Source: a virus
Direction: 5' to 3' (one strand)
Virus record (IMG/VR): IMGVR_UViG_3300025892_000010
Length of the DNA stretch: 64,000 bases
Below, piece after piece: positions 2,552-58,788 of this stretch. The notes under the pieces are model-generated. The model did not search any database and had not been told where the DNA came from. It saw only the letters and a list, made by a program, of their open reading frames with translations. Made by a program: the position numbers and the translations under genes. How positions within the stretch are numbered: position 1 is the first letter of the stretch; every line of letters starts with the position of its first letter.

Positions 2552-3120
2552 TTTTCACTTCCTACTTTTTGTATAAAATAACTATCTGCAATATCTGATA
2601 ATGGATTGCCTGCTTTATCAGTATCAAATATTTTTTTCAAGTCAATTTTAGTTTCTTTTATAAATGCATTTAACATCATATCTTTGTCTGCGTTACCTTT
2701 TCCTGTTGCACCTTTTTTAACAACACTCGGTACAACGGTATCGTAAGGTATATTTTCTTCTTGTAATCTATATTTGAGTATGCCACAATTTTCAGCGATT
2801 TGAAAAAGGCCTTGACCTTTTGAACCATAAGAGTAACCCTCAATATAAACCATAGGCTCAAGTAATGGTTCAATAATGTCCAATGCAAAATCTGAAATGT
2901 ATTTGAATCTTTGAATAGGGTCAGTCCATTCTTTATGTTCATAACCAATAATTTCCTCACTCATCATACCAATATGTTTCTTTTTATTTGTCAAATAGAA
3001 AAACATTAAACTACCATTATCAATACAAATGGCAGGACTTGTTAAACTATAATCAATTCCAACTATCGTCTTCGGCTTTTTCAAAATCTGTGTCATCAAT
3101 TTCCTCAACTTCCCATCCAC
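2548..3120 (-). CDS. RuvC-like (RNase H fold) nuclease/resolvase
   Basis: GIDYS...IEGYS...ATGKGNADK...DIADS; true start probably the internal MTQILK. Confidence 0.75.
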   Translation of the reverse strand: MDGKLRKLMTQILKKPKTIVGIDYSLTSPAICIDNGSLMFFYLTNKKKHIGMMSEEIIGYEHKEWTDPIQRFKYISDFALDIIEPLLEPMVYIEGYSYGSKGQGLFQIAENCGILKYRLQEENIPYDTVVPSVVKKGATGKGNADKDMMLNAFIKETKIDLKKIFDTDKAGNPLSDIADSYFIQKVGSEK

Positions 3121-7302: not shown

Positions 7303-7311
7303 ACTTCTCTC

Positions 7312-8310: not shown

Positions 8311-8319
8311 AGCAAATAC

Positions 8320-8348
8320 AATATACAATAATCTCACTCAATTGTCAA
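8320..8348 (-). promoter_or_regulatory. Sigma70-type promoter for primase
   Basis: TTGACA-17-TATATT. Confidence 0.7.
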
Positions 8349-8417
8349 TGGTGGAAAAACTTCCTAATCAAAAAAATACCAGAGAATTTTCAGCGCTGTT
8401 TTTCTAACAAAAGCGCT

Positions 8418-8843
8418 TTAGTTCATCATAGCTAGAATAGTTTTGAAATTATTTGATAATATCCAACCTATTACGATAGAACCACCTAATACCAACCATT
8501 TATATTTCTCTAGTATACCAACTCTCCCACCAATGTCAAGCTTTAATTGCCTGATTTCTAGTAAAAGTTTTTTTTCTACCTGTTGGATTTCTTTTGATAA
8601 TTCTTTGTGAACATTATCTATCTCTCCAGCTCTTTCTCTTAATTTTTCAAAGATAACTTCGTCTGTTTGTTCTTGTCTGGAGATTTTCTCTTCGTGTACG
8701 GCTAACATCTGTTTAATACAGGTAGATACATCTGTTAGTTTGTCTATTGCTGTGTCAAGTCTACCGTGGATTGTTTGTACGTTCTCCACGTCTTTTTTTA
8801 GACCAGCTATATCAACGATTACTTGTTTCTCTATGTCAGCCAT
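8418..8843 (-). CDS. Coiled-coil protein with C-terminal TM helix (XhlA/holin-like architecture)
   Basis: Heptad-rich body followed by WLVLGGSIVIGWIL. Confidence 0.5.
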   Translation of the reverse strand: MADIEKQVIVDIAGLKKDVENVQTIHGRLDTAIDKLTDVSTCIKQMLAVHEEKISRQEQTDEVIFEKLRERAGEIDNVHKELSKEIQQVEKKLLLEIRQLKLDIGGRVGILEKYKWLVLGGSIVIGWILSNNFKTILAMMN

Positions 8844-8854
8844 TGATACACTTT

Positions 8855-9196
8855 CTAATTAGCTAATGGGTTTTGTGCTTTTAGTTTTAATTCTTGTATT
8901 TGTAATTTTAAAACTTCTACTTCTTTTTCTAATACTGCGACATTAGTTTCATTCTTTTTGATACCTGATACATCTGGTGCTTCTGCTTCAGATTTTTCAA
9001 GTAAAGAAATTCTTTCATTTGATTTAGCAATTTCAGCCGTATTTTTTGTGATACCTGATACGTCTATGCTAGAACCTTCTATTGCTGATAGTCTTGTATT
9101 AAATTCGCCCCAAGCATAAAAACCACCACCTATGGTAGCGATTACACCTATCAAGGCTGCGTATGTAGATAGTTTATCTACTATTCCATTTTTCAT
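8855..9196 (-). CDS. Membrane-anchored coiled-coil protein
   Basis: N-terminal TM (YAALIGVIATIGGGFYAW); internal repeat DVSGI(T/K)KN. Confidence 0.6.
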   Translation of the reverse strand: MKNGIVDKLSTYAALIGVIATIGGGFYAWGEFNTRLSAIEGSSIDVSGITKNTAEIAKSNERISLLEKSEAEAPDVSGIKKNETNVAVLEKEVEVLKLQIQELKLKAQNPLAN

Positions 9197-9207
9197 TTTT
9201 ATCCCTT

Positions 9208-11037
9208 TTATTGTAATGATTTCAAAGCAGCTATTTCTGCCTGTAAAGTATTTATTCGTGTTGACACCCTAGCTAGAGCATTCATTTGAACAGCAATTGG
9301 GTCATTACTTATATAGACATTTAAGGATGCCTCTTTATATATTTGTTGCTGTTCTAATATATTTAGTTTTTCAAATAACTCTAGGTTACCATCAGGAATT
9401 GTTCCACCGTTTAATCTTTTGTTCTTATATGCCGTTAAATCTGGTGCATTTGAAGATAACCCTGCTGATATTACTAAAGAAGTTGCTTGTAGTTTTTGGT
9501 CAACTCTTTTTAATTTAGAATTTATTTTTGCAATAATTCTTTCTACTTTTTTACCTATGCTGTCAATGTCGGTAGTGGCAATCTTCCTGTCCGAGACAGA
9601 TACATCTGTCTCATCTTCCACAACTTCGCCATCACTCTCCGTCTCCTTTTGTCCTTCTGTTTCCTTATCTTCAACCACCTCTGGTTCATTAGATACAACA
9701 TCACTCTCTTGTCCTTCCGGCTTTGTTGTTTTTTCATCTGTTGATAAAGTTTCCTCTGTCTTAACGGTTTCTGTTGTAAGTTCTTCATTAGTAGCATTTG
9801 GTTCTTCCTTTATGTTAGATTCTTCGGTTGTTTTTGACTCTATCATATCGTTATTTTCTACTTCAAAATTACTCGTCATTGTCTCTTCTTCTTTAAATTC
9901 TTCCATCTTCGGTTCTTCCATCATAATTTCTGGTTCATTTAAACTAGCAATTTCATTCATCATATCACCACCTAATTCTTTCATCATACTATCGCCTAAC
10001 TCCTCAAAAAATTGTTGTTCAGTAATACCTTCAACTTTTAATTCTTGTTTAAAATCTTGTACTAGATTATTGGTTTCTATAAAATCTGTAAATTGCATTT
10101 CTACAAATTCTTCAAACTTTACTTCTTCTATTTTACCAAGGTCATCTTCAACTATAACCTCAAATTTTATTTCCTCTATTTTTACTTCTTCCATTTTATC
10201 TATTTCTTTAAATGCGTCATCAACTTTATTATCTAAATCTAGGAATAAATCTTTACCATCAGAGGTTTTTAAATCAACTGCGTCTGCAATATCATTACCT
10301 GCGTCTGTACAAGTTCCTAATTCTGAGCAAGGTGTAATTGTTGTAGTGTTAACACCAGCAGTTGTAATAGATAACTGAACATTATCTACATCTGGTCCCC
10401 AATGGGCACCATCATTACCTGTGCCAGCTGTATTATTATAAACTTCAGCTCTTATTGTAAAATCTGTTTGTGTATTTGCATTGTGAGTATAACTATCAGT
10501 TTGATTATTCCATTGACCACTATTCGTTGACCTATTCGGGTCGTAGTCATTTATATTTCTTGTTTGTGTAGTTACCGTACCATCACCGGCTGTGATAGTT
10601 TGTTTAAGTGTTAGTGTGTTTTCAACACTATTCCAAAACCAAATGTCTGCTGACATTGTTGAAGTAAAACCCTCATTGATTTGTGATTGTGTTAAATGAC
10701 TATCGCCAACTAAATCTACATCTTGGTAAATACTACCATTTGGGTCGCCTTCAAATGCTAAAACACCACCTGAAGTATTTTGTCCTGATTGAGTTGAACC
10801 TGTTGTGGAGGTGTGGCCTTGACCGACATCACCTGAAATTGTCCAACCGTTTGAGTTGTAACCAGATGTTCCGAAAGTTGAGTTTGTTAAGACGTTGCCT
10901 GTGGTTGTTCCTGCTGTAGATGTAGTACAGGTACGGTCACCAAGGTCGTTGGTTGTACAGGTCTCTGCCTTACTTACGTTTAGAAAAGTCGTAAGGGTTA
11001 AGGCTATGACCAAACTTATAAACTTTATAACTTGCAT
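9208..11037 (-). CDS. Exported protein: signal peptide, beta-rich (CBM-like) domain, acidic linker, coiled coil
   Basis: MQVIKFISLVIALTLTTFLNVSKA signal; Cys pairs; NSTF..GW..YQDVDL..GPDVDNVQL pattern. Confidence 0.65.
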   Translation of the reverse strand: MQVIKFISLVIALTLTTFLNVSKAETCTTNDLGDRTCTTSTAGTTTGNVLTNSTFGTSGYNSNGWTISGDVGQGHTSTTGSTQSGQNTSGGVLAFEGDPNGSIYQDVDLVGDSHLTQSQINEGFTSTMSADIWFWNSVENTLTLKQTITAGDGTVTTQTRNINDYDPNRSTNSGQWNNQTDSYTHNANTQTDFTIRAEVYNNTAGTGNDGAHWGPDVDNVQLSITTAGVNTTTITPCSELGTCTDAGNDIADAVDLKTSDGKDLFLDLDNKVDDAFKEIDKMEEVKIEEIKFEVIVEDDLGKIEEVKFEEFVEMQFTDFIETNNLVQDFKQELKVEGITEQQFFEELGDSMMKELGGDMMNEIASLNEPEIMMEEPKMEEFKEEETMTSNFEVENNDMIESKTTEESNIKEEPNATNEELTTETVKTEETLSTDEKTTKPEGQESDVVSNEPEVVEDKETEGQKETESDGEVVEDETDVSVSDRKIATTDIDSIGKKVERIIAKINSKLKRVDQKLQATSLVISAGLSSNAPDLTAYKNKRLNGGTIPDGNLELFEKLNILEQQQIYKEASLNVYISNDPIAVQMNALARVSTRINTLQAEIAALKSLQ

Positions 11038-11086
11038 ATGCTACAAGGCAACTCCAAATAAGCCAATTAATAGTACCGTAATCCAT
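10970..11086 (-). CDS. Possible 38-aa membrane peptide overlapping the start of the 609-aa gene
   Basis: MDYGTINWLIWSCLVAYASYKVYKFGHSLNPYDFSKRK; AGGA upstream. Confidence 0.35.
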   Translation of the reverse strand: MDYGTINWLIWSCLVAYASYKVYKFGHSLNPYDFSKRK

Positions 11087-11099
11087 AAATTATTTATTC

Positions 11100-11873
11100 C
11101 TACTTCGGTGGATTTTGTTTCATCTCCAGGCTTTTTTTTTTCGATTCTATATCAGCAGCCTTATCTACTTCTTTCCACTCTTTATTAGATTTTTTTTCTT
11201 CTATCTTTTTTAATTTTTCTTGTACAACTTTTAATTCTTCTTGTCTAGCAATCTCATCTTTCTTTGCTTGAATTTTGTCTGCTTTCTGTACAACTTTTAA
11301 TCTCTTTGTATAGATGTCATAATCAGGTCTTAACTTATTGTATTTTGACCATTGTTCAGTTGCAGCCTTACCAATTTTACCTTCAAACGGACAAGGTGTA
11401 CCTGATTGTTCCATTGCAAAGAAAACTCTAGGATCCTGACATAAAATTGACACAGCAGCCACTTTCATACCAAGGTCATTTAAGACTTTAGATAATTTTA
11501 TACGTTCACAATTTTCGTCTGTTCTATATGAACCAGCAGATATACCTAAACCAAATGAAGACACACCACCTGACATACCAACCACACATAAATCCTGTGA
11601 CATTGCTGACATACTAGGTGCTGAAGATGAATTTACAACTCTTTGGTCACCTGTATAGGCGTTTGTTGTACTATTAGATGTGGTATTGGAAGACGAACCA
11701 CTAGCGTAAGTAGTAGTTGATTCTTGGCTATATCCACCAGAAATAGTGGTGTTAGAACCCGAAGTTGTTGTTTGTGTGTTGGTCGTGGCACCATTTGAAG
11801 TGGTGTCCGCAAGTGTCAAGTGTGTTAGTCCCATAACGAAACATATTATAAGACCGATTAAAGTCTTGTTCAT
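11100..11873 (-). CDS. Exported Cys/Gly-rich protein with possible -1 frameshift extension to 11041
   Basis: Signal MNKTLIGLIICFVMGLTHLTLA, T/S/N-rich stalk, four Cys in the mature part, A10 run near the 3' end. Confidence 0.7.
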   Translation of the reverse strand: MNKTLIGLIICFVMGLTHLTLADTTSNGATTNTQTTTSGSNTTISGGYSQESTTTYASGSSSNTTSNSTTNAYTGDQRVVNSSSAPSMSAMSQDLCVVGMSGGVSSFGLGISAGSYRTDENCERIKLSKVLNDLGMKVAAVSILCQDPRVFFAMEQSGTPCPFEGKIGKAATEQWSKYNKLRPDYDIYTKRLKVVQKADKIQAKKDEIARQEELKVVQEKLKKIEEKKSNKEWKEVDKAADIESKKKSLEMKQNPPK

Positions 11874-11952
11874 AATTTGTCTCTGCGCCTCTACGTGAGT
11901 TAATCTCACTTATTTGTATGCAATTTTCGTGCAAATGAGGTCGTTATACCTT

Positions 11953-11960
11953 TATTTATA
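11953..11960 (-). promoter_or_regulatory. T4-type late promoter
   Basis: TATAAATA in the intergenic gap. Confidence 0.7.
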
Positions 11961-11972
11961 AAGGATTTTATT

Positions 11973-12191
11973 TTATTCTAGTATCAAAGCCTTAATGCCT
12001 TTTGAGCCATCAATATTAATTTCTAATTCTGCCTTTGACTTAATGCAACTATACTGAACACTACCATTGGTTTTCAATTGTCTCTCGGCTATTCTTTTTC
12101 CTTTGAGACAAATTGACATAGTGTCTTGAATTCTATGCTCCTTAATTTCATTATTCACAATCATAAGTAATGCTACAATTGTTTCAATCAT
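11973..12191 (-). CDS. Small exported/membrane protein with two Cys
   Basis: Hydrophobic N-terminus, 72 aa. Confidence 0.55.
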   Translation of the reverse strand: MIETIVALLMIVNNEIKEHRIQDTMSICLKGKRIAERQLKTNGSVQYSCIKSKAELEINIDGSKGIKALILE

Positions 12192-12649
12192 TAGTGTGCG
12201 TCTCCGTTACCGTTCTTATAGACAATCTCTCTGTCTGCGTCTTTTAGTTTTTCAATATCTTCTTTAGCCTTAATCATTTGTTCTTTTAAGAAACCGATTT
12301 CTAATTTGTTGTTCATCATACCTTCAATGTGTTCTTCCATCTTTTCCACGGTCTTATATAAATCCTCAATCAACATAAATTGCTCGGAATCGGCAGGTAA
12401 ACTACCCATTTCACCTCTTGGCCATTTAATTCTAAACTCTGTATTCTTTTCCAAGTCAACTACTAACATTTCTGTTGCTTGTACTAAATCTTTTTCTAAT
12501 AATGTTATTTTAGTTTCTGATATGTTTAGGCGTTCTACTATGCCGAAATAACTCCACACTCCGACAGCCACGGCTCCGATTATGGCCAGCATATTCCGGA
12601 TTGGCATTGCAACAGCTGTGTTGTCATCTACTGATATTGGTTTACTCAT
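12191..12649 (-). CDS. Membrane-anchored coiled-coil protein
   Basis: TM MLAIIGAVAVGVWSYFGIV followed by heptads. Confidence 0.6.
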   Translation of the reverse strand: MSKPISVDDNTAVAMPIRNMLAIIGAVAVGVWSYFGIVERLNISETKITLLEKDLVQATEMLVVDLEKNTEFRIKWPRGEMGSLPADSEQFMLIEDLYKTVEKMEEHIEGMMNNKLEIGFLKEQMIKAKEDIEKLKDADREIVYKNGNGDAH

Positions 12650-13031
12650 CTTTTATATCTTCACTTTCATAGTATTCTTTATATTTATCTAACAAATCAT
12701 TTGTAATCTTCAACTGATTTCGGATTCTAGCAAAGTTCTTAGCCAAGAGTTCAAAGTCTTTATCTGTAAGTCCCCATAACACCGGGTCAATGCCTGATTC
12801 CTCTAGCTTTTTGAACACTTCCTCGGCGTTCTCACTAGTTATAATTATCCATTTTAAATTCTCTAATTCAAGTGGTGTGGGTTTGTTCAAATTGAGTTTT
12901 TCCCTCGGTACCTCTTGCTTAAATATCTCTAACTGCTTTACACCTGAGCAACCTGATAAGAATATACACAGCATTAATGGTACTGCTATTATCCAGGCAA
13001 GTCTGTATGTTTTATCTTTAGTATGGGACAT
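12642..13031 (-). CDS. Lipoprotein, o-spanin (Rz1-like)
   Basis: Lipobox FLSG-C after a hydrophobic stretch; start MSHTK overlaps the 3' end of the upstream gene. Confidence 0.65.
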   Translation of the reverse strand: MSHTKDKTYRLAWIIAVPLMLCIFLSGCSGVKQLEIFKQEVPREKLNLNKPTPLELENLKWIIITSENAEEVFKKLEESGIDPVLWGLTDKDFELLAKNFARIRNQLKITNDLLDKYKEYYESEDIKDE

Positions 13032-13488
13032 AATTTGGATTTGCAATACTAGGACACTCTGAATTAATTTCAGACTTCTTTGTAGCATTCTTTTCCTCAT
13101 CTGTTAAAGGTGAGCCACTAGCAATCTCTATACATCTTGTCGCCAATGCACTTGCACCGTTTGTTATTCGTTCAATAGATTCTGTTCTCTGTATGGCTAA
13201 CTTACCAACGTCTCTATTTTTTTTATTAAATCTCTTATCTAAATCTTCTAAATCTTTTTTAAGTACACTTACTAACTCATTCATCTTATTGTTAGCGTCT
13301 AGTATTTTCTTAAAATCTATCTTTTGATTTTCTATAAGTTCTTTCTGCTCTGATACAGCAGATTCTAATTTAATTTGATTTGCTTTTAACGTTGCGTTAT
13401 CAGCTCTTAATTTAAATACATAGGCGCCGGCGCCGGCAAGGCCGGCAACCATAACACCTATCATAATCATTCTCATACTACCAAACAT
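13018..13488 (-). CDS. i-spanin (Rz-like)
   Basis: N-terminal TM, long coiled coil, C-terminal Cys; overlaps the lipoprotein gene. Confidence 0.65.
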   Translation of the reverse strand: MFGSMRMIMIGVMVAGLAGAGAYVFKLRADNATLKANQIKLESAVSEQKELIENQKIDFKKILDANNKMNELVSVLKKDLEDLDKRFNKKNRDVGKLAIQRTESIERITNGASALATRCIEIASGSPLTDEEKNATKKSEINSECPSIANPNYVPY

Positions 13489-13489
13489 T

Positions 13490-13600
13490 TTATTTTTTCC
13501 AAAATTTTAGTTTCTTTGCCATAGCAGCTACGTCTTCAAATTTTTCATTGACGTACCAACCAGCAATAAAACCTACAATAAATCCTATTGTTGTAAACAT
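13490..13600 (-). CDS. 36-aa membrane peptide
   Basis: MFTTIGFIVGFIAGWYVNEKFEDVAAMAKKLKFWKK fills the gap exactly; AGGAG SD. Confidence 0.6.
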   Translation of the reverse strand: MFTTIGFIVGFIAGWYVNEKFEDVAAMAKKLKFWKK

Positions 13601-13601
13601 T

Positions 13602-14186
13602 TTAATCTCCTATTTTTGCGTTTCTTTTTCTATGACCATTCCACGCAACAAAGCCACCTGCTCTCAATGACCAGTATGCTAGATAATTCATAAGATAAAA
13701 ACCGTTAACATTAATGTTTATATCTCTAAAGATTTCGTCTGCTCTTTTTTGAGATATTTTACCTAACGTATCTCTTTTATTTTCTCTTAACAAAGTTTCA
13801 TACTTGTAAGCATAGTCGTGTACAAGACCACCTATTAGTAATACACCAACTGGTGAGAAAAATGTTCTTAAAAATTTTGGTATACTTGCACCATCAAATT
13901 TAAAGCCAGCAGGTATTACATATTTGTTTCCGTTTAACACGTAAGTAAAATCGTTTACTAGTTGCCAATTTCTAGTTCCTAATAACCACATTACTATTGC
14001 TTTAAAAAAACCTTTGCCTTTTGTTTTTATAGGTAAAGGTTTTAAATCTGGCATTGCTGTGTATGCGAAAGTATAACATTTAGGTCTCTTTCTATCAAAC
14101 AAGTTGATAGCAAAACCTAATATTACAAACGCAATTAACAATGACCATTGCCAAAACTTCATTGCTAAACCCATTAATAGTTCCAT
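13602..14186 (-). CDS. DUF1353-family protein with N-terminal TM
   Basis: PAGFKFDGASIP...HDYAY...RADEIF. Confidence 0.75.
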   Translation of the reverse strand: MELLMGLAMKFWQWSLLIAFVILGFAINLFDRKRPKCYTFAYTAMPDLKPLPIKTKGKGFFKAIVMWLLGTRNWQLVNDFTYVLNGNKYVIPAGFKFDGASIPKFLRTFFSPVGVLLIGGLVHDYAYKYETLLRENKRDTLGKISQKRADEIFRDININVNGFYLMNYLAYWSLRAGGFVAWNGHRKRNAKIGD

Positions 14187-21562: not shown

Positions 21563-21912
21563 TAGTTGTTTACCTTTGCTCCTGCTCTCCATTGATAACA
21601 AGACCAATATCGTGCTTTCCATTTAGGACCTGGATTATCACAATTGTGCCTTGCTCTAAACGATTTACGTCTAGCTGGGTCGTCTCTTTTAATACTTAAA
21701 CCTGTTGTGTCACCAAATGATACTTTAACTACATTACCTTTTTCGTTCTTAACATAAACATAAAACTTCTTACTACCACCACGAATTGGGTCATTAAGTT
21801 TGACCTTTTTGCCTTGATATTCAGACTCTTGTAAAGGTTCGTGTTCGTGTTCAAAAATACACTCATCACATTCTTTATCGTAGTTTTCAAATTCTTTTAA
21901 TGTTTTTACCAT
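21562..21912 (-). CDS. Basic conserved domain protein (KSFRARHNC...RYWSC)
   Basis: KTLKEF N-terminus, LQE linker, then basic domain. Confidence 0.65.
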   Translation of the reverse strand: MVKTLKEFENYDKECDECIFEHEHEPLQESEYQGKKVKLNDPIRGGSKKFYVYVKNEKGNVVKVSFGDTTGLSIKRDDPARRKSFRARHNCDNPGPKWKARYWSCYQWRAGAKVNN

Positions 21913-24209
21913 TAGACTTTCTCTATCATTTTAGCAACAGCCTCTTTTAGCTTTGCTTCCCATTGTTCTTTATAACGTTCCCTATATTTATTCATTGTGG
22001 ACTCTGTAGCTGCCCATTCTTTTATATCTTTTTCAGTAGGGTTATCCGTTTCTCTTTCTAGGAAACCTTTGATTTTCTTCTTAACTGCCATATCACCACT
22101 ACCTGGTTGTGACGGTTTGTATGTAGGATTTTCATATCCTGCATAGTCTGGTTCACCTGGTGTTATGGTTGATGTATGTTTAGCGTAGTCGTTACCAATG
22201 TCTGTCGCCTCTTTAATCTTTGAAACGAGGTCTTTTCGTAATTCTCCAAACATTTTTTTATATTTCTGCGTGTGTTTAGATGGTTTAGTTTTAGCTGTCT
22301 TATCTCCAGGTGCTGGAGTGTTGTCATTCTTGGTTGTGTCTTTGCCTTTAAAATGGCCAGCTCGTTTATCTTTAACATCTTTTTTTAGTCCACTATAATA
22401 CTTTTTAGGTTGTGTTCCTTTTTTATCTTTCACGTCTTTATCTTGAGCTAATCTATCAGTATGTGCTTTAGAAGCCTCTGATACTGCCTCAAATCCATAG
22501 TCAACGTCTAGGTTATATTCCCTCACGTCTACCTCTCTATCTGCCGATACAGGTACACAATCCCATATCCAAGCTTTATGTAAATTATTTTTATCGTCTT
22601 CTAATACGACATAATTAGTACCTTTTCTTTTTACGGTACCTTGTATATCTTCTTTGACATAATCAACTTTGTCACCAATATTAAATATCATTTCTCTAAT
22701 ATATAAATCTCTAATTTGTTGGTGTTCAAAGTCTTTAAATGGTACAACTTCTTTAGTCTCGCCTGTGTATTGAGCGGCTAAATTCATACCTTGTCTTACT
22801 TGTTTCATTATAGCATTTGCGTCAACACCTCTTGGTAGTCCTCTTTTAAAACTAGCAATATCGTTGCTTGAAGCAGCTGCTCTCATTTTACTCGCTGACA
22901 TACCTGATACGTTATCGGCATCGGGGTCTCTTTCGCCAGCAGATACAACATCAATATTATCAAAGTTATAATAACCGTGTCTTGATTTTACATCATTATA
23001 CTTTTTAATTATTGTATCAAATTCTCTAACTCTATCACTACCTACAACCATAGTTATATCACTATAACCTTTTTTGTAAAGTAATGTACAAATATCTAAT
23101 ATCATATTTGTATTATTAACTTCTATATTTCTTGCGTGTCTAGGAAACATCTTTTTCATTATGTCTAGTTTTTGTCTAGGCGATAATGGATTCTTTTTAG
23201 GGTCCTGACTTCTACTTAAATAAATTCTGTAATCGTTTGACCTAATACTTGCCACTTTATTAATTAACTTTTCGTGACCAGTTGTAGGTGGATTAAATCT
23301 ACCAAAACTAAATGCGATTGACTTGCCTTTAGCTTCGTGCATTTCTAAATCATCTATCTCTTTATCGGTAACTTTACCGTCATCTAAAATCTTTTTACAT
23401 TTTTTATAGAAGTTTAAATAGTGATATTTTTCTAACATCTTATAGATAACATTTTTAGGTAATCTATTCTTAATACCAAACTTTTGTATTTCGTCTGGTG
23501 TCATATCTGAATCAAAAGCAGCTCTTCTATCTGCGTCAACACCATCACCTACTTTAATAATGGCTTTGATACTATCTTCTATTTCTTCTAACTTATCGTT
23601 AATTCTATCTTGTAAATTTAAAATATCATTAGGTTCTAATTCTTCTAATTCTCTGTAATCAATAATGTCTCTTTTTAATTCACCTTTGATAACATCTAAC
23701 TCTTGTACTTTTTTCTCAAAATCTTTTAAGTATAAACTAGGGTCAAATGTAAAATCGTCAGGTCTTTTTATAAACTTATTACCCTCAATATCAAATACTG
23801 CGTCTGCCTTTTTATTCTGGTCATCATAAGTTTGTTTGTCTGTAATAAAATAATAATTAATAGGGTGTTTAGAACCTGGTATTAATTTGCCTTGTATGTT
23901 ATCTGGATTAGAAGCAGACAAATACTTTTTAGATAGTCTTAATCTTTCTTCTTCTTGTTTATCAACAGGTACATCAAACAATACATTAAGGTCTAGGTCT
24001 GCGTCATTTCTATATCTCTTTGTAAGAATAGAACCGATAAGAGAAACTTTTAAAACAGGATACTCACTTTCAAATTCTTCTAGTTGTTTATTGATTAATA
24101 CAACAACACTAGGTTTGATTTTAGGATTAGGAGTATCAGCGTCATCAAACACAGCCTTAGCATATGTTCTTCTTGGTATATCTATGATACTTTCTTTAAA
24201 CGTTTTCAT
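21912..24209 (-). CDS. Fusion of Pol-beta-type nucleotidyltransferase, helical domain and HxGH cytidyltransferase-like domain
   Basis: GSIL...DADLD; FGRFNPPTTGH; VVGSDR; MSASKMR; start set at MKTFKE. Confidence 0.75.
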   Translation of the reverse strand: MKTFKESIIDIPRRTYAKAVFDDADTPNPKIKPSVVVLINKQLEEFESEYPVLKVSLIGSILTKRYRNDADLDLNVLFDVPVDKQEEERLRLSKKYLSASNPDNIQGKLIPGSKHPINYYFITDKQTYDDQNKKADAVFDIEGNKFIKRPDDFTFDPSLYLKDFEKKVQELDVIKGELKRDIIDYRELEELEPNDILNLQDRINDKLEEIEDSIKAIIKVGDGVDADRRAAFDSDMTPDEIQKFGIKNRLPKNVIYKMLEKYHYLNFYKKCKKILDDGKVTDKEIDDLEMHEAKGKSIAFSFGRFNPPTTGHEKLINKVASIRSNDYRIYLSRSQDPKKNPLSPRQKLDIMKKMFPRHARNIEVNNTNMILDICTLLYKKGYSDITMVVGSDRVREFDTIIKKYNDVKSRHGYYNFDNIDVVSAGERDPDADNVSGMSASKMRAAASSNDIASFKRGLPRGVDANAIMKQVRQGMNLAAQYTGETKEVVPFKDFEHQQIRDLYIREMIFNIGDKVDYVKEDIQGTVKRKGTNYVVLEDDKNNLHKAWIWDCVPVSADREVDVREYNLDVDYGFEAVSEASKAHTDRLAQDKDVKDKKGTQPKKYYSGLKKDVKDKRAGHFKGKDTTKNDNTPAPGDKTAKTKPSKHTQKYKKMFGELRKDLVSKIKEATDIGNDYAKHTSTITPGEPDYAGYENPTYKPSQPGSGDMAVKKKIKGFLERETDNPTEKDIKEWAATESTMNKYRERYKEQWEAKLKEAVAKMIEKV

Positions 24210-24898
24210 CTTCTTTTTAATTTTCTTTCTGTAGCCATCCATCTTTTTGCTGTGTATGACTTAATTTTATTTGATAATAAACCTCTTACTGCTTTACCAA
24301 CTTTACTCATTACTATTGTTGTAAGTTCTTTATCGTCTTTACTATTATCTACAATCACCATATTATTCATACCAAATAAATTTTGAAATCTACCAATATT
24401 AGATTGTACACCTTCCCAAGATTTTCTTGTAATATATTCTGGTACGGTTCTCTCTCTTTTTTTATTTCTTTCTAATGCAACATCTAAACTAGTATTAACA
24501 AATATCATATAACAATCATAACCTAATTGTCTTAACATAGCAGTTTGGTTTTTAATCTTATCATAATCTCTACCAGTACCATCAACAACCATACCTAATC
24601 TACCTTTGATAGATAAGTCCATTATATTACCTGTTGTTGCCTTTGCTCTGGCTCTTACTATATCTCTCGCCTCTGCCTCATCTTCAGGCATTTTTAATGA
24701 AAGATTGTTTTTCTTTAATGCATTTTCAAAACCAGTATCAGAGTTAATCATTCTTAAACCTGTACCACCAAAAGCACTTCTTGTCACAAATGTTTTACCA
24801 GAACCTGGACCACCTGCAAGAAAAAATGCCTTAAAAATATTAGGGTCATATAAACCCTCATTTAATTCTGTATATTTTATGTCGTTAAATGTTTTCAT
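24206..24898 (-). CDS. P-loop kinase (zeta-toxin/AAA_33-like)
   Basis: LAGGPGSGKT, INSD, VDGT, ALERNKKRER. Confidence 0.75.
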   Translation of the reverse strand: MKTFNDIKYTELNEGLYDPNIFKAFFLAGGPGSGKTFVTRSAFGGTGLRMINSDTGFENALKKNNLSLKMPEDEAEARDIVRARAKATTGNIMDLSIKGRLGMVVDGTGRDYDKIKNQTAMLRQLGYDCYMIFVNTSLDVALERNKKRERTVPEYITRKSWEGVQSNIGRFQNLFGMNNMVIVDNSKDDKELTTIVMSKVGKAVRGLLSNKIKSYTAKRWMATERKLKRR

Positions 24899-25476
24899 CT
24901 TTCTATTCTTTTTATAATTTTATTTGCAATAACTTCAGGCTCTGCACCCTCAGCTTTAATATTTATTAATTGTTCATCAAAATGTTTAATAACAGGACCA
25001 ACTTGTTTTTCGTGTTCTCTTAATCTTTGTTTAATAACTTCTGGTTTATCATCTGCTCTACCTCTGGCCGTCAATCTTCTAATTACTTCTTGTTCAGATA
25101 CTTGTAAGTTAATAATAAAATTATGTTCTATATTATTTTTATCCATTGCTCTTACTTGTTCCATACTTCTAGGAAAACCATCAAATACATATCCGTTTCT
25201 TGCGTCTGGTTTTTTAAGTCTGTCCATAACTTCTCTCATAACAATCTCTGTCGGAGCAAACTTACCATTCGCTAATAATTCTTTTACTCTTTTACCATCT
25301 GGTGTATCTTTCTTTGCCAAGTCTCTCATCATATCACCAGTATAAATGTGTGGTATATTAAAATGTTTTGTAATATATTTTGAGTAAGTTGATTTACCCG
25401 AACCTGGTCCACCTATCATAATAATTTGCCAAGGTCCACCTTTTATTTCTCTTAAAAATCTTTCTACAAATTTCAC
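24895..25476 (-). CDS. adk: Adenylate kinase (short LID)
   Basis: GGPGSGKST, TGDMMR, DGFPR, RGRADD. Confidence 0.85.
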   Translation of the reverse strand: MKFVERFLREIKGGPWQIIMIGGPGSGKSTYSKYITKHFNIPHIYTGDMMRDLAKKDTPDGKRVKELLANGKFAPTEIVMREVMDRLKKPDARNGYVFDGFPRSMEQVRAMDKNNIEHNFIINLQVSEQEVIRRLTARGRADDKPEVIKQRLREHEKQVGPVIKHFDEQLINIKAEGAEPEVIANKIIKRIER

Positions 25477-25634
25477 TTTTTATATCCTGTACCTTTATCT
25501 CTGTTGCCCCATCTTTTTTGCCAAGCCCAAACACTCATTCTACCACCTATGCTTTCACATATTGAATAGTATTTGTCTAAAACACCAATCATTTTCTTTT
25601 TATATAAATCAATTGTATCTGGTAATGTTCTCAT
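25473..25634 (-). CDS. 53-aa hypothetical protein
   Basis: MRTLPDTID...WAWQKRWGNRDKGTGYKK; TAATG and GTGA overlaps with both neighbours. Confidence 0.6.
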   Translation of the reverse strand: MRTLPDTIDLYKKKMIGVLDKYYSICESIGGRMSVWAWQKRWGNRDKGTGYKK

Positions 25635-26851
25635 TAATTCCATCCTTTAGGCATTGTAAAGTTTTGCCTACTAAATTCTAATCTATCTACAAGTTTAACT
25701 GCACCTGCAACTCTATCAACGGCCACATATCCTTCAGGAGCGGTTACTCTATAACCACTTGAAGTTCTAACAAAATGACCTATACTTTGAATTTGATTCA
25801 TCTTTCTTAATAAAGTATTTTTAGCATTCGCTAAAGTAATATGACTTGCAATCGCAAAGTATAATGCTGTTCTATTTCTTTTGATAAAATTCATACCTTC
25901 TTTTTTTGCTTTTTGGTATGGTGCTTTACCTCTATCAGTTTTCTTACTATCAATTTCTTTATCTAATACGTTTTCGTAATATGTTTCAAATCTTTTTTGC
26001 ATATCTCTTACACCACCCATATTACCTTGCGTTGTTTTGATAAAGTGATTAAAGAAAGTTTTTAATCTAAATCCAACCGTATTAGTGTCTTGACTTGTTT
26101 TAGACATTTCATTTAACATAGGAGCTGCTTTAGATAAAGAGCCTTCAGCCATTCTTATTTGTGCGTCAAAAGCTTTTAGTTCATTAGCATTAAACATAAC
26201 TGAACCAGACTTATCTGTATATTGAGCAGACGCTAAAAATATATTTGAACCACCATTACCTCTAACGGTACCAAAACCTGCTGATAAACTTTTCATATTT
26301 TTACCAGTATATGATGTATGAAATACAATGCCCATTTTGGCTCTAGCAATTTGTTTACCGATATTACTATCTACCGGTACTGCATATGTAATTGTATTAG
26401 GTGTAAATGAAAGCATTTTTTCACCATCAATATTTACTACTTTTAAATCGTCTGTAAATAATAGGTCGCCTTGCAAGATACCTTTGATTGGTAATTTTTT
26501 AAGATAATTAAAACAATATGCAAGTTTTTGAGCTGCACCACCTGTGCCGTGATTTTTTTTAATATCTGATATTGAATAATTGATTTTAGGTGTGACGTTG
26601 AATACTGATTTAGTACCAACAAAGAATTTTCCGTTTTCTGGATTTTGGCCACATATAATAGCAGGCGCACCGTCCCATTTAACGGTCATATTAACTGCAC
26701 CTTTGGCATTACCAGCCAACATATTTCTAACTGATTTTAGAAAGCTTATTGCATTATCACCACCTTTGGCACCGTTATTAATAATATCATCTTCTAGGTG
26801 TTCAAGGTGTGTGTTTTTGTCCTGTGTAAAGAAACCTTTAAAACTAAACAT
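25634..26851 (-). CDS. Conserved T4-like protein (DUF6267-like) with ligase-type nucleotidyltransferase motifs
   Basis: TVKWDG (KxDG), QGDLL, PEGYVA, AVKLV. Confidence 0.6.
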   Translation of the reverse strand: MFSFKGFFTQDKNTHLEHLEDDIINNGAKGGDNAISFLKSVRNMLAGNAKGAVNMTVKWDGAPAIICGQNPENGKFFVGTKSVFNVTPKINYSISDIKKNHGTGGAAQKLAYCFNYLKKLPIKGILQGDLLFTDDLKVVNIDGEKMLSFTPNTITYAVPVDSNIGKQIARAKMGIVFHTSYTGKNMKSLSAGFGTVRGNGGSNIFLASAQYTDKSGSVMFNANELKAFDAQIRMAEGSLSKAAPMLNEMSKTSQDTNTVGFRLKTFFNHFIKTTQGNMGGVRDMQKRFETYYENVLDKEIDSKKTDRGKAPYQKAKKEGMNFIKRNRTALYFAIASHITLANAKNTLLRKMNQIQSIGHFVRTSSGYRVTAPEGYVAVDRVAGAVKLVDRLEFSRQNFTMPKGWN

Positions 26852-37449: not shown

Positions 37450-38838
37450 TTAGTCAATGCTGTATTTGGTTGTTATCACGTATTTTCTTTGGGGATTGAC
37501 CATAACGTTTAATCTCTTCATAAATGCACGGTCTAATAAGATAGGAGTTCTATCTTCTCTATCGTCAATGGTAAATTCTACATCTTTATAGAAACCACCG
37601 GCAAATTCTACATCTAGTTTTACGACATATCGGTCTTCATCATAATCTCTTAAGCCACCAACTTTAATCTCTTCTTTACGGACAATATCACTTGTAATAG
37701 TTTTACCTAATAAAGACCAAGTTATTTTATTACCATTGATTTTGTATTTGTCAGAGTGAATTACTGGCATTCCAGAATTACCCGTATCAAATTTTGAAAT
37801 TAATTCACCAAACGGTTTTATGGTCAAAATCTCCTTAAAACCACATTCCGTTGGCACAGAATATCTATTCTCCTCATTTGCAAAATGTTTAATTACTTCT
37901 TTTGCAATATTCATTTTAGTTGCTTCTTCTATACCCTCTGTACCAGGTGAAGAGTTTACTTCAAGAAAATATGGTGGTTTGTTTACTCTGTCTTTACTTG
38001 GTATAAAGTCAACAGCAGTCCAATATCCACCAACTGCCTTTGAGGCTAATAAGCATTGTTCTATTTCTAATTCTGTTAGTTTAATATTTTCTGGTTTAGA
38101 ACCTTGCGATACATTTGACCTAAAATCTCCTTCAATTACAGGTCGTTTCATAGCCGCTAAAAATTTACCACCTAGTATATGTACTCTGACATCATATTCT
38201 GTTTTAATATATTCTTGTATTAATAAATCTGTGTCTTCATCTTGTTTGTGTATAAGTTGTACAATAGAATCTAAACCTTTTGGACTATCTACAAATAAAA
38301 CACCAACACCTTTTGACCCTCTTAAAGTTTTCATAATTAAAGGAAACTTAATACCTGATTCATCAACTATCTCATTTGATTTTTCGGGGTCATTAATTAG
38401 TTTTGTTTGAGGTTGTGTTAGACCATAATCTGCAAGTCTTAATGAAGTTCTATATTTGTCAGCACACATATTAATTGTAGTTCTAGGATTTACCAACGTT
38501 GCATTGGCTCTTTCTAATATAGATACAAAGTCTAACCAACTATCTTTACGTGTAATAGAACCACGAACAATAGCAACGGTCATAGCACCAACTTCAAAAC
38601 CTTTTTTATCATCTTGATTATGAAATTTACGGATGCCGTCTTCGTAAGTGGTATAGCCACCTGTAAGTTTAAAAAGATAATATGGATAATTTAACTTATC
38701 ACATTCCTCTTTCAACCTATCGGCAGTATGAAATTCTTTTGCATTATCTGGCTCATCTGTAATAATGAGCAAACGCAAAAAGTCCTTTTTAGCCTCTGTT
38801 ATGTAATCTTTAAACTTGCTTACCTGCATTGCCTTCAT
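37450..38838 (-). CDS. RimK-like ATP-grasp ligase fused to a C-terminal DTG protease-like domain
   Basis: GSKGVGV, IQEYI, FRSNVSQG, LEVNSSPG; KFDTGN...ILLDRAF. Confidence 0.8.
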   Translation of the reverse strand: MKAMQVSKFKDYITEAKKDFLRLLIITDEPDNAKEFHTADRLKEECDKLNYPYYLFKLTGGYTTYEDGIRKFHNQDDKKGFEVGAMTVAIVRGSITRKDSWLDFVSILERANATLVNPRTTINMCADKYRTSLRLADYGLTQPQTKLINDPEKSNEIVDESGIKFPLIMKTLRGSKGVGVLFVDSPKGLDSIVQLIHKQDEDTDLLIQEYIKTEYDVRVHILGGKFLAAMKRPVIEGDFRSNVSQGSKPENIKLTELEIEQCLLASKAVGGYWTAVDFIPSKDRVNKPPYFLEVNSSPGTEGIEEATKMNIAKEVIKHFANEENRYSVPTECGFKEILTIKPFGELISKFDTGNSGMPVIHSDKYKINGNKITWSLLGKTITSDIVRKEEIKVGGLRDYDEDRYVVKLDVEFAGGFYKDVEFTIDDREDRTPILLDRAFMKRLNVMVNPQRKYVITTKYSID

Positions 38839-40725: not shown

Positions 40726-41388
40726 CTAAAATTCAGAGTCAGGTTCAATAGCAATCCAATACTGAATTGGTTTGCCTTTAGCTATAAAGTGAGATATTTT
40801 CTGTTGTGAAATTGCAACATCATAATCATCTGGTAACATCTTCATATTTTCTGTCTTAAAATAAGCAGTAAATGTTTTATCTGTATCACCTAATGATATT
40901 GAATAGTCGTTTGATGGTGTCTTTTTATCAACAGCAACAATACTCATAGTCTTACCATCACCTTTTACTGCAATGTCTGGTAGATTTAAAGTATTTACAC
41001 CTCTCATAAGTTTAGCAAGGTTATCTTTAGTCAATGTAAAGGTAACATACTTATCAGGCATATTGATTGTTTTTGTTGGTGCAACAACAACCGACTTATC
41101 TGCAAAGAAATATTTGATTGATTGTCTTCCGTTTGCGTCTTTGATTGTCATATTCTGACTACCATTAAATTTAAGTTCAGACTTATCAAATAAGTCATAT
41201 GCTCTTAAAAATTCTGGTAAATCATAGATAGCAAACTCACTTTCAAACTTCTCTTTAATTTCAGCCTCTGCTAAAATGTTTTTTAACGTAGAGATAGTTT
41301 GAATCTTACTGCCAGGTTTAACAAGAATATTCTGATTGATGTCAGAAAAATTTTTGAGAATGGCAATGGTATCACTTGTTAGGTTCAT
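40726..41388 (-). CDS. gp45: Sliding clamp (gp45)
   Basis: LKNFSDINQ, IYDLPEFL, YWIAIE. Confidence 0.93.
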   Translation of the reverse strand: MNLTSDTIAILKNFSDINQNILVKPGSKIQTISTLKNILAEAEIKEKFESEFAIYDLPEFLRAYDLFDKSELKFNGSQNMTIKDANGRQSIKYFFADKSVVVAPTKTINMPDKYVTFTLTKDNLAKLMRGVNTLNLPDIAVKGDGKTMSIVAVDKKTPSNDYSISLGDTDKTFTAYFKTENMKMLPDDYDVAISQQKISHFIAKGKPIQYWIAIEPDSEF

Positions 41389-41413
41389 TATATAGTTCTC
41401 CTCATAATTTAAT

Positions 41414-41487
41414 TGGAGCGGCTAGTAGGTAACGCTCCTACGTCTGCGAGTTGGTAACCCGCCGTAATACTTTTATACGATAGCCGC
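41414..41487 (-). tRNA. tRNA-Gly, anticodon ACC, non-canonical D/T loops
   Basis: GCGGCTA/TAGCCGC acceptor stem, U73, encoded CCA, anticodon loop TTACCAA, T-arm GTAGG-AGCGTTA-CCTAC. Confidence 0.85.
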
Positions 41488-41494
41488 ATTATTT

Positions 41495-41523
41495 AATATA
41501 TCAAATTTCATTGAAATTGGCAA
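41495..41523 (-). promoter_or_regulatory. Sigma70-type promoter for tRNA and gp45
   Basis: TTGCCA-17-TATATT; predicted start lies at the tRNA 5' end. Confidence 0.7.
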
Positions 41524-41534
41524 TGCTCCTTTGA

Positions 41535-42800
41535 TTATATAAGGACAAGTTCATTTTGTTTATGTACCTTGCCTATAACTGGTAAGGTTCCGTATATTTC
41601 CACATTTGTGTTAATAATAGGTAGTACAACCTCGCCGTTAATTTGTCTTTTAAAGTAAGAGTTACCAATATTAATTACTTCTTGAGCGTAATTTGTATTG
41701 TGATTTTTAACTCTTTCATCATATTGTTCTTCTAATTTTTGAATTGTATTCATAGTATCTAAAGTAGATGTATGTAATACAAGTCTAATAGTTTTACCTG
41801 CAAAGTTAGTATTGTTTGCAATAGCAGCTACTCTGGATAAATTTTTAGTCCAGTATGAAGCCGCACCTATAACATACAAATATTCATTTAGATGTTTTTC
41901 ACCTAGTTTAGTTTGTACATAACAAGATTCTTTAGCAGACAAACCACTATTAGGATATTGGTCTTTTGCTTTCTTATAACCTTGTTCTATCATCCAATCG
42001 TGTACTCTTTCAGGAGTCCAAGAATTAATATAAGGTCTTGAAGCATTATTATTTAAAAGTGATTGAGCTATAATGTTTTTAGTATTGTCTGTAAAATGAC
42101 TACCCTCGGTAACTTCATTTACCCAAGCATTAATCTCATCTAAATTTTTACCTAAATCTAAATCATTAATTAGTTCTTGACCTACTAAAATTACATCACC
42201 AGTTGAAGCAACACCTGTTGGGTCATCAATTAAATTAAACTTTAAATTATTTGTTGCTAAAGTTTTGTTATCTTTTACTGAATAAACGGCTACAATAGCA
42301 TTTTTAAAATCGCAAGTTTTCTTTAAAATTTCTACCCTAGTTCTACCTGTTAAAAATCTAATTGAACCATCTGGATATTCAACGATTGCTATAGGGTTGT
42401 ATTTTAATTTAAAACCGTTTTCTAAAATAGAGTTTCTAATACCAATGTGTTTTTTATTAGTTGTAGCTCTACCTTTTTGTTTACCATATTTGTTTTTTAG
42501 ATTGTCAAATAATACATCTATATCTCTTAATTCAAATCTCTGAAAGAATAATCCTTTATCTTCTCTATCATATAATTCAGGATAGGCTTCTTTAACAATA
42601 AGTCTATCGTGTGTTTTTAAATTCTCATCTGTAAATCTATCCGTATTATTAACGTTTACAATAATTGAATTGTCGTTATTAATAATTTTTGGTTGTGATT
42701 GAATATCAAAAGCTGTGTCTAGCCTTTGATTAGTTTGTGGAATATTTAATGTCATAATTACTTTCTGCGACCTTTGTCGCTTTTCAATTTGTTTATACAA
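41535..42800 (-). CDS. Hypothetical protein with ParB/Srx-like segment
   Basis: SILENGF...PIAIV...FLTGRTR. Confidence 0.45.
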   Translation of the reverse strand: MYKQIEKRQRSQKVIMTLNIPQTNQRLDTAFDIQSQPKIINNDNSIIVNVNNTDRFTDENLKTHDRLIVKEAYPELYDREDKGLFFQRFELRDIDVLFDNLKNKYGKQKGRATTNKKHIGIRNSILENGFKLKYNPIAIVEYPDGSIRFLTGRTRVEILKKTCDFKNAIVAVYSVKDNKTLATNNLKFNLIDDPTGVASTGDVILVGQELINDLDLGKNLDEINAWVNEVTEGSHFTDNTKNIIAQSLLNNNASRPYINSWTPERVHDWMIEQGYKKAKDQYPNSGLSAKESCYVQTKLGEKHLNEYLYVIGAASYWTKNLSRVAAIANNTNFAGKTIRLVLHTSTLDTMNTIQKLEEQYDERVKNHNTNYAQEVINIGNSYFKRQINGEVVLPIINTNVEIYGTLPVIGKVHKQNELVLI

Positions 42801-57450: not shown

Positions 57451-58788
57451 TTACATTAAGTTTGCAACTTGTACTTTTTGGTAGTATCTGTTAGAGTTTG
57501 CTGAACCAGCGTCATTTACTGCTGAAGCAGCACCTGAAATTGCACCAGTTTCGGCAAATGGGTTCGCTACTAGACCGTATCTAGTTTTGAAACCAATTTT
57601 AGGTTGGAAAGTATCTTGACCAACTGCTCTAACCATTTGTAGAGGTACATATGGACAATAGAACATACCAGCGTCATAAGGTGAAGTACCTTTATAACCA
57701 ACTACGTAGTATTGTTTCGCCGAAGAGTTTGCACTATACGGGTCAATGTACACTTTGTATCTACCGTTAAGAACACCAGCAAAAGTATTACCAGTATCGT
57801 CAACGTTTAGGTTGTTGTTAAGAGCAGGAGTATAGTCTAATACACCAGCCATTTGAAGAGCAGAAGCGACATCTGAAGAACAGATAATCATATTTCCTTT
57901 TCCTCTTCTTGTTCTCTGAGCGATTCTGTTTGCGTCTCTTTCCAATTGGAACATAAGACCTTTGAATCTCTCAACAGACCATCTACCATTTGAGTCTGTG
58001 TCTAAATCAAAGATACCAGCAGTTGTTGTATTTACAGCAGCGCCTTTTTCAGCGTTAATGTAGATAGTTCTAACTACTTCTCTATTGATTTCAGCCAAGA
58101 TTTCAGCAGATAAGATGTTTGCTAACTCTGTTTCAGCGTCTAAACCGTGGATTGCTTTTAAGTCTTGAGCAAGTTCCATAGTGTATTCAGCTTTAAGAGC
58201 TCTTGATTTAGCAGTTACCGTAGATTTCTCAATTGAGAAAGCCATTTCAGCAAATGCGTTACCACTAGCGTCACCCAATGCTTCAGCAGCTGCTGTAGTC
58301 ATTGCTGTACCTTTTGTGTAAGTACCTGGTGAACCGTCATTTAAGACAGCTGGGTTAGTACCGGCGTTAGCAGTAGTTGAATAACCATCTACAGCTGAAC
58401 CAGCAGCGTTTCTACCAGAGAAATCAGTATCAGCTTCGTCAAACATAGCTTCTTGACCAGTTTGTGAAGTGTATCTGCTTCTCATAGCAAATATAAGACC
58501 AGTTGGACCGGTCATAGGTTGAACACCTGCAATATCGTAAGCGATAAGGTTAGGCATTGCTCTTCTTACTAAACTAATTAGGATTGGATCCCAGTTAGAT
58601 ACAGCTGAACCAGTTGAGTTTGTTGGTGCAGCTTCAGATAAGAACGCATTGTCTTCCTTAGCAGCTCTTTCTTGGTTTTCCAAGATAACAGAGGTGACGG
58701 CACGTCTATAAGAATCCGTGATTTTTGGTAAATCAGGATGCTCAAGGACTGGCTGCCATTTTTTTTCGTGAGTTTCGGATAAGTACAT
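57451..58788 (-). CDS. gp23: Major capsid protein (gp23)
   Basis: VQPMTGPTG, KSRALKAEYT, FQPKIGFKTRYG. Confidence 0.97.
   Translation of the reverse strand: MYLSETHEKKWQPVLEHPDLPKITDSYRRAVTSVILENQERAAKEDNAFLSEAAPTNSTGSAVSNWDPILISLVRRAMPNLIAYDIAGVQPMTGPTGLIFAMRSRYTSQTGQEAMFDEADTDFSGRNAAGSAVDGYSTTANAGTNPAVLNDGSPGTYTKGTAMTTAAAEALGDASGNAFAEMAFSIEKSTVTAKSRALKAEYTMELAQDLKAIHGLDAETELANILSAEILAEINREVVRTIYINAEKGAAVNTTTAGIFDLDTDSNGRWSVERFKGLMFQLERDANRIAQRTRRGKGNMIICSSDVASALQMAGVLDYTPALNNNLNVDDTGNTFAGVLNGRYKVYIDPYSANSSAKQYYVVGYKGTSPYDAGMFYCPYVPLQMVRAVGQDTFQPKIGFKTRYGLVANPFAETGAISGAASAVNDAGSANSNRYYQKVQVANLM

Follow-up and report, generated by a model that had tools for sequence, protein, structure and literature searches.

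The question raised by this locus is whether a short minus-strand segment of the window (the whole stretch of viral DNA that was analysed, 64,000 nt long), which reads as a glycine tRNA with the anticodon ACC and an altered elbow, is a working gene, and what its anticodon and its elbow would then be for. The one standard bacterial tRNA with A at position 34 is tRNA-Arg(ACG), a substrate of the deaminase TadA. To our knowledge, bacterial A34 tRNAs are described as essentially limited to tRNA-Arg, and tRNA-Gly(ACC) is described as absent from eukaryotes. The gene and its parts lie as follows.

41414..41487, minus strand: tRNA-Gly(ACC) gene, 74 nt with encoded CCA, recognised from its sequence, fold, RF00005 score and the covariation of its homologues
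41487 (G1), 41417 (U73) and 41416-41414 (encoded CCA), minus strand: end points of the tRNA
41453..41455, minus strand: anticodon A34 C35 C36 (A34 at 41455), inside the loop UUACCAA at 41457-41451
41468..41474, minus strand: D loop AAAAGUA, with A18 (41471) in place of the near-universal G18 and with G19 (41470) kept
41430..41436, minus strand: T loop AGCGUUA (A54 G55 C56 G57 U58 U59 A60), with its closing pair G53-C61 kept

The sequence was read as an acceptor stem GCGGCUA/UAGCCGC followed by U8 and C9, a D arm GUAU-AAAAGUA-UUAC containing a U13-U22 mismatch and followed by G26, an anticodon arm GCGGG-UUACCAA-CUCGC, a variable region AGAC and a T arm GUAGG-AGCGUUA-CCUAC, with U73 and CCA at the 3′-end. 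This cloverleaf was the minimum-free-energy fold (-27.3 kcal/mol, z = -3.0) and was equalled by 3 of 200 shuffles. Bacterial GlyRS recognises its substrates by G1-C72, C2-G71, G3-C70, U73, C35 and C36, and this set was complete in the window tRNA. Only G19 and C56 were present from the canonical elbow set (G18, G19, U54, U55, C56 and A58), and with G55 and A54 in place the near-universal modifications pseudouridine-55 and T54 have no site. The numbering of A18 and G19 rests on alignment with the D loops AAUGGUA of T4-type tRNAs, which are of equal length.

Detection of the gene depended on the method. ARAGORN called no tRNA anywhere in the 64,000-nt window, and the default fast scan with Rfam gave no match over the same stretch. 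When positions 41300-41600 were searched with the sensitive Rfam scan, the tRNA family RF00005 matched over model positions 1-71 of 71 with 45.2 bits (E = 1e-8), the threshold being 29. ARAGORN, whose scoring the first-pass annotation of this DNA had put forward as a check beside tRNAscan-SE, thus missed the gene, and the Rfam model placed it above threshold. We attribute the failure of the tRNA finders to a T loop that is unlike the usual UUCGAAU type; within the wider family sharing the A18/G55 elbow (described below), ARAGORN recovered 36 of 182 members. The same annotation had read from the letters alone a full cloverleaf with glycine identity elements and an encoded CCA, a reading that sequence, fold and RF00005 score all uphold; its anticodon ACC, its A18 in the D loop and its T loop AGCGUUA agree with the sequence, the numbering being backed by the T4-type relatives.

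A BLAST search against cultured phages revealed homologues in two Pelagibacter phages, HTVC008M and Mosig. The loop UUACCAA was found in all three copies, while their anticodon and T stems differed by paired changes. A pattern scan of IMG/VR with the D arm and UUACCAA retrieved 65 contigs carrying 27 distinct 77-nt sequences. In every one of 19 distinct ACC sequences of 71 nt, all 20 stem pairs were intact, and most pairs showed double changes; U8, A14, A21, U33, A37, G53-C61, G19, C56 and U73 were invariant in them, and a purine was kept at position 57. The same behaviour was observed in a larger set of 110 distinct T4-type tRNA-Gly sequences, in which 92.2% of cells were paired compared with 73.1% in shuffles, and the covariation score was 0.557 compared with 0.166, a value reached by none of 500 shuffles. 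The acceptor, anticodon and T stems were 97.8-99.6% paired, with 13 pairs altered on both sides; the D stem (three pairs and the U13-U22 mismatch) was invariant and hence uninformative on covariation. G1-C72, C2-G71, G3-C70, C35 and C36 were invariant in all 110 sequences and U73 was present in 109.

The suggestion that the locus is not decaying is therefore borne out by stem covariation and invariant identity elements, and the search for homologues that had been proposed with it recovered the same tRNA in HTVC008M, Mosig and the 65 IMG/VR contigs. A pseudogene or sequencing error was rejected on this recurrence and on the lack of broken stem pairs. From the comparative evidence we infer that 41487-41414 is a genuine tRNA-Gly gene kept by selection. 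An origin of the tRNA in the host was also rejected: the D-arm and anticodon-loop pattern matched 2 of about 185,000 bacterial species genomes, neither match being a host gene. One was a chance match and the other a phage contig binned in the metagenome-assembled genome (MAG) Alphaproteobacteria bacterium TMED93. This contig, NHEU02000038.1 (10.8 kb), carries an identical tRNA followed by a phage sliding-clamp gene and is a pelagimyophage fragment; the MAG itself (about 30% G+C, 1.4 Mb) has its own tRNA-Gly(UCC) and tRNA-Gly(GCC), both with canonical elbows. A literature search for 'Gly-ACC' together with phage gave nothing relevant, and neither a natural A34 tRNA-Gly nor an A18/G55 elbow was found described in the literature searched.

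To follow the elbow beyond the ACC tRNAs, IMG/VR was scanned for this D arm combined with any base other than A at position 34. The A18/G55 elbow with G19-C56 was found in 114 further contigs, mostly with UCC and in some cases with GCC, and the T loop in all of them was N-G-C-R-N-U-A. A broader scan, which demanded a non-A base at position 18, brought in the canonical tRNA-Gly of the T4 type, with AAUGGUA as D loop and UUCGAUU as T loop, together with intermediates. One of these, AAUGAUA with UUUGAUU, carries an A19-U56 swap; another, AAAGGUA with AUCGUU(A/C), has A54/U58 and yet keeps G18/U55; a further one combines AAAGAUA with GUUAGUA. In the 110 distinct sequences, positions 18/55 were G/U in 62 and A/G in 48 with no mixed case, positions 19/56 were G-C in 105 and A-U in five and never broken, and positions 54/58 were U/A in 68, A/U in 16 and G/G, U/U or C/A in the remaining 26. 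The paired change at 18/55 that had been noticed in the single sequence is thus confirmed, G18/U55 and A18/G55 never being mixed, and so is the retention of G19/C56, five relatives carrying the A19-U56 swap instead. Of the proposed compensatory swap at 54/58, A54/U58 is indeed there but is one of several states; A/U, G/G, U/U, U/A and C/A all occur in relatives, so these positions do not covary strictly. The A18/G55 combination may have arisen once and then been inherited, and so it counts as at least one double change with long retention rather than as many independent events.

In known tRNAs, G18 lies intercalated between positions 57 and 58 and forms one hydrogen bond with pseudouridine-55, and the exposed face of G19-C56 is a stacking surface for the ribosome (L5 and the L1 stalk), RNase P and T-boxes (PMC4810234). 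Since the present tRNA retains the G19-C56 face and has purines at 18 and 57, the overall architecture of the elbow is probably preserved. In total, A18/G55 stands in place of G18-pseudouridine-55 in about 180 contigs, from phages of SAR11 and of cyanobacteria, and would allow elbow structure, and the enzymes acting on U54 and U55, to be tested on a natural example. One UCC group with A18/G55 comes from cyanophages, its gp43 being 92.6% identical to that of Synechococcus phage S-SSM7; in S-SSM7 the syntenic position is taken by a canonical tRNA-Gly(UCC). Neighbouring genes resemble those of pelagimyophages in another UCC group and in the GCC group. On one S-SSM7-like cyanophage contig (L124), a manA RNA motif (RF01745, 186.7 bits, 2909-3094) lies directly upstream of the A18/G55 tRNA-Gly(UCC). 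Three contigs (L069, L125 and L144) carry a canonical tRNA-Gly(UCC) followed 8 nt on by an A18/G55 tRNA-Gly(UCC), and L050 carries the ACC tRNA (24-97) as well as a host-like canonical tRNA-Gly(GCC) and a tRNA-Thr(UGU) (2059-2215). Such tandems of canonical and A18/G55 tRNAs are hard to explain by decoding alone, so the elbow may add a further property.

The anticodon ACC was also found with other elbows, namely with A19-U56 (contigs L234 and L255) and with fully canonical nucleotides (L264 and L312), and the nearest relatives of these four were UCC tRNAs of 79-91% identity. For the window tRNA, the nearest non-ACC relative was a GCC tRNA on contig L229 (84%), which has G18/U55 and A54/U58; it lies in a phage tRNA array at 6682-13672 with about 20 RF00005 matches. 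The occurrence of ACC in several T4-type tRNA-Gly backgrounds indicates that A34 arose or was retained in several of them. The elbow and the ACC anticodon had been presented as one coupled novelty, and this did not hold, as 114 contigs combine the elbow with UCC or GCC, and canonical elbows are found with ACC elsewhere. Canonical loops and UCC in the relatives would, it had been argued, point to error or a pseudogene; UCC and GCC relatives do exist, but they share the non-canonical loops, which makes these loops a lineage trait rather than an error or a pseudogene.

Comparison with T4-type tRNA-Gly(UCC) of Tevenvirinae places the gene further. By BLAST, the window tRNA matched the annotated tRNA-Gly of Erwinia phage IT22 (contig L003, 1522-1595) with 79% identity over 58 nt, the two sharing the 5′-half scaffold GCGG...UCGUAUAA..GUA, and in both the D loop measures 7 nt, the variable region 4 nt, and CCA is encoded. 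Copies of the T4 type on IMG/VR contigs also share U73 and the U13-U22 mismatch. The T4-type tRNAs differ in having G18 G19, the T loop UUCGAUU and UCC, where the window has A18, G55, A54, U58 and ACC, and graded intermediates within the lineage connect the canonical form to the window form. Also comparable are the A18/G55 tRNA-Gly(UCC/GCC) of marine T4-like phages, with the D arm GUAUA(A/G)AAGUAUUAC, the T-loop pattern given above and the same glycine identity set; their contigs differ from ACC contigs in the anticodon and in using less GGT and more GGA. Judged by these sequences, the window tRNA is a member of the T4-type tRNA-Gly lineage, and under the best explanation its non-canonical elbow would have come down from ancestors with UCC and GCC in marine T4-like phages, with no tie to ACC.

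The genomic setting was determined from the following elements.

41495..41523, minus strand: sigma-70-type promoter TTGCCA-17-TATATT with extended TG; its -10 element ends 7 nt upstream of G1
40726..41388, minus strand: gp45 sliding clamp, directly downstream (Pfam gp45-slide_C, E = 9e-14)
41535..42800, minus strand: 421-aa ORF, upstream, without a Pfam family, its stop codon 12 nt before the -35 element

The tRNA occupies a 146-nt gap between two genes of the same strand and lies 14 nt upstream of the gp45 ribosome-binding site (GAGGAG, 41403-41398); the clamp-loader genes come after gp45. In the clamp-adjacent relatives the promoter is conserved as CAGCATTGAC(A/T)-17-TATATT, 7-8 nt before G1, so that the promoter of its own that had been ascribed to the gene is real by this measure. 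No terminator-like site was found between the tRNA and gp45 on the minus strand, and the two are therefore probably co-transcribed. From the spacing of the promoter, the first base transcribed in the clamp-adjacent ACC group may coincide with the mature 5′-end or adjoin it, which could lower the need for RNase P. The genomic position varies: gp45 follows the gene in the window and in Mosig, and the HTVC008M copy has cobS on one side and S21 on the other. HTVC008M-type copies are preceded by a hairpin and are without the promoter of the clamp group. These differing sites indicate an independent gene rather than the leader of one mRNA, and a gp45-specific leader element was rejected on the grounds that HTVC008M-type and GCC-type copies adjoin other genes.

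As to the rest of the window, all 65 ORFs of at least 100 aa are on the minus strand and the G+C content is 32.7%. Genes identified were gp23, scaffold protein, prohead protease, UvsW, gp44/62/45, Hsp20 and a MoxR/CbbQ-type ATPase. A megablast search of the surrounding 2.2 kb against cultured phages gave no match, and no tRNA match was found in the nearest IMG/VR record, a 24.5-kb fragment (G001). Positions 21912-26851 (minus strand) encode an NTP_transf_2 and cytidylyltransferase-like fusion (776 aa), a zeta-toxin/AAA_33-like kinase, an adenylate kinase and a DUF6267 protein. A tRNA-repair or CCA-adding role of the nearby late cassette was considered and rejected, no recognised tRNA-enzyme domain being among its Pfam matches. 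At 37450-38838 (minus strand), a RimK-like ATP-grasp domain (Pfam E = 6e-37) is fused to a Zn_protease-like domain at the C-terminus (E = 3e-6).

Glycine codons were counted in the 65 minus-strand ORFs, and the major capsid gene, on which the observation of GGT dominance had been made by eye, was located by Pfam.

57451-58788: gp23 (Pfam Gp23, E = 1.8e-151)

GGT accounted for 826 of the 1141 glycine codons (72.4%), followed by GGC (163), GGA (131) and GGG (21), and for 31 of the 34 in gp23 (91%); the visual impression of GGT dominance is thus matched by the counts. In the other four-codon boxes of the window, T- and A-ending codons were about equal (for example GCT 476 and GCA 471), and SAR11-like MAG fragments had 33% GGT and 51% GGA. 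Within the A18/G55 family, the median of GGT/(GGT+GGA) was 0.86 in ACC contigs (n = 67), 0.83 in GCC contigs (n = 14) and 0.66 in UCC contigs (n = 89), a comparison whose very small Mann-Whitney p-value overstates independence since the contigs are related. ACC contigs also had the lowest share of GGA (11%). In canonical-UCC contigs the median was 0.68, GGT being favoured by T4-like phages in general. The higher GGT with ACC than with UCC is in the direction expected of a decoding tRNA, and the idea of a codon-matched tRNA fits both the glycine-specific excess of GGT and the way in which codon usage goes with the anticodon from contig to contig.

Taken with the conservation described above, we consider it likely that the gene specifies a working phage elongator tRNA-Gly of the T4 lineage in pelagimyophages (T4-like phages of SAR11), reading GGU through A34. 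An early-type promoter of its own would drive it together with the gp45 clamp operon, transcription perhaps beginning at G1 or one base before, and it would be charged with glycine by the host GlyRS, as every bacterial glycine identity element is present. On the ribosome, A34 would pair with the U of GGU in Watson-Crick geometry, and GGC would probably also be read somewhat; A34 tRNAs in strong G/C boxes read the C-ending codon to some extent. The benefit would lie in a phage genome in which GGU makes up about 72% of glycine codons, compared with about 33% in a SAR11-like genome, where GGU would be read only by G-U wobble of tRNA-Gly(GCC). The elbow, with A18 and G55, G19-C56 kept and a variable 54/58, would be a compensated structural variant. 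Laboratory constructs with the same anticodon behave in this manner: an orthogonal ACC tRNA in E. coli read GGU and GGC at 76:24 with no inosine (PMC11066159), G34A tRNA-Gly was still charged by GlyRS (PMC4928997), and bacterial tRNA-Gly(ACC) was active in elongation according to the account of Boren et al. given in PMC4928997. The window tRNA differs from these engineered or mutant tRNAs in being a natural, selected gene in many phage genomes. [quoted passage not shown] A natural tRNA-Gly(ACC) under clear purifying selection in abundant ocean phages, despite that argument against A34 (PMC4928997), would make its recurrence a natural system for asking why A34 is avoided.

The same translational role would be served if host TadA turned A34 into inosine, ICC then reading GGU, GGC and GGA, but this we regard as improbable. 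The window tRNA does share A34 and C35, a 7-nt loop, U33 and A37 with tRNA-Arg(ACG), A34 being the position on which TadA acts, and I34 would cover the GGT, GGC and GGA that make up 98% of the window glycine codons. The substrate loop of TadA (U33-A34-C35-G36-A37) is nevertheless not matched, position 36 being C instead of G, and the amino-acid identity is another one. The E. coli enzyme shows high specificity towards the tRNA-Arg2 loop and leaves an ACC tRNA unmodified (PMC11066159), human ADAT barely deaminates tRNA-Gly(ACC) (PMC4928997), and the low GGA share of ACC contigs is unlike that expected of a GGA reader. A phage-encoded TadA was rejected, no deaminase-fold gene (PF00383, PF14437) being found in HTVC008M, Mosig or two long related contigs. 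The lack of a phage deaminase in these genomes, the unmodified ACC in E. coli and the charging of G34A tRNA-Gly together suggest that A34 most likely stays unmodified. Decoding itself would be secondary if the locus were mainly a tRNA-like element, acting as a 5′ processing or stability signal of the gp45 transcript, as an off-ribosome glycine donor, or as a frameshift or hopping factor through a weakened elbow, which seems highly improbable. Its place just upstream of the gp45 ribosome-binding site with no intervening terminator would suit the signal; destabilised elbows alter translocation and frameshifting (PMC4810234); and the non-proteinogenic tRNA-Gly of staphylococci, cell-wall donors serving Fem transferases, are likewise glycine tRNAs without the canonical D-loop/T-loop elbow nucleotides, having lost G18/G19-type contacts with U19 for G19 (PMC4574755). 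The window tRNA, however, keeps G19-C56 with 18/55 covarying, its family belongs to phages of Gram-negative hosts, U33, A37, C35 and C36 are conserved without exception, and anticodon and codon usage go together from one contig to another. We know of no Fem-type glycine bridges in SAR11 or cyanobacteria, and HTVC008M-type copies are not beside gp45.

A reading that concerns the elbow rather than the anticodon is that it hides the phage tRNA from a host tRNA-directed nuclease or toxin, or from a phage-driven depletion of host tRNAs, so that the phage copy sustains translation. The elbow persists across very different hosts, in S-SSM7-like cyanophages and in pelagiphages, it is absent from the genomes of about 185,000 bacterial species save for the binned phage contig, and the tandems of canonical and A18/G55 tRNA-Gly(UCC), like the ACC tRNA beside a host-like GCC tRNA, look non-redundant. 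Other phages are documented to carry tRNAs resistant to anticodon nucleases, but in known cases of escape the anticodon loop is involved rather than the elbow. This analysis identified no nuclease, toxin or target, the outer G19-C56 face on which most elbow readers stack is unchanged (PMC4810234), and neutral compensated change with inheritance accounts for the same data; we therefore hold an escape device to be rather unlikely. In a bolder form, which we put forward tentatively and as unlikely, A18/G55 would define a class of 'stealth' phage tRNA-Gly that is competent on the ribosome through G19-C56 and evades canonical recognition of the T loop and elbow, to which pelagimyophages would add an unmodified A34. 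The activities evaded, of host or phage, might be, for example, a tRNA-directed nuclease or toxin, T-loop modification enzymes or a dependence on RNase P, the last of which fits a promoter ending 7-8 nt before G1. If this were true, A34 would be viable in a four-codon box and the 'universal' contact of G18 with pseudouridine-55 would be replaceable.

Under the preferred reading of a working elongator tRNA, existing annotation has also to be reconsidered, as published annotation and standard finders have overlooked the tRNA-Gly(ACC) of SAR11 T4-like phages. The published numbers of tRNAs are 0 for HTVC008M in a survey table and 3 for Mosig in its announcement (PMC7029224, PMC7892664). In HTVC008M, the homologue at KC465899.1 91140-91213 is without any annotation; ARAGORN calls it tRNA-Gly (acc), and with 49.5 bits it is the sole RF00005 match in the complete genome. 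The Mosig copy was absent from the output of two Rfam scans, probably by a filter effect; a UCC relative with an identical T loop scored 42.3 bits. A Mosig CDS annotated as a hypothetical protein of 31 aa (Mosig_000011, MT647606.1 7774-7869, equal to L001 2498-2593) overlaps with the homologue of tRNA-Gly(ACC), and its annotation is almost certainly spurious. The low recovery by ARAGORN, the count of zero for HTVC008M and the Mosig copy registered as a protein indicate that tRNA tallies are too low in marine T4-like phages, so that tRNA-based host predictions for these phages undercount as well.
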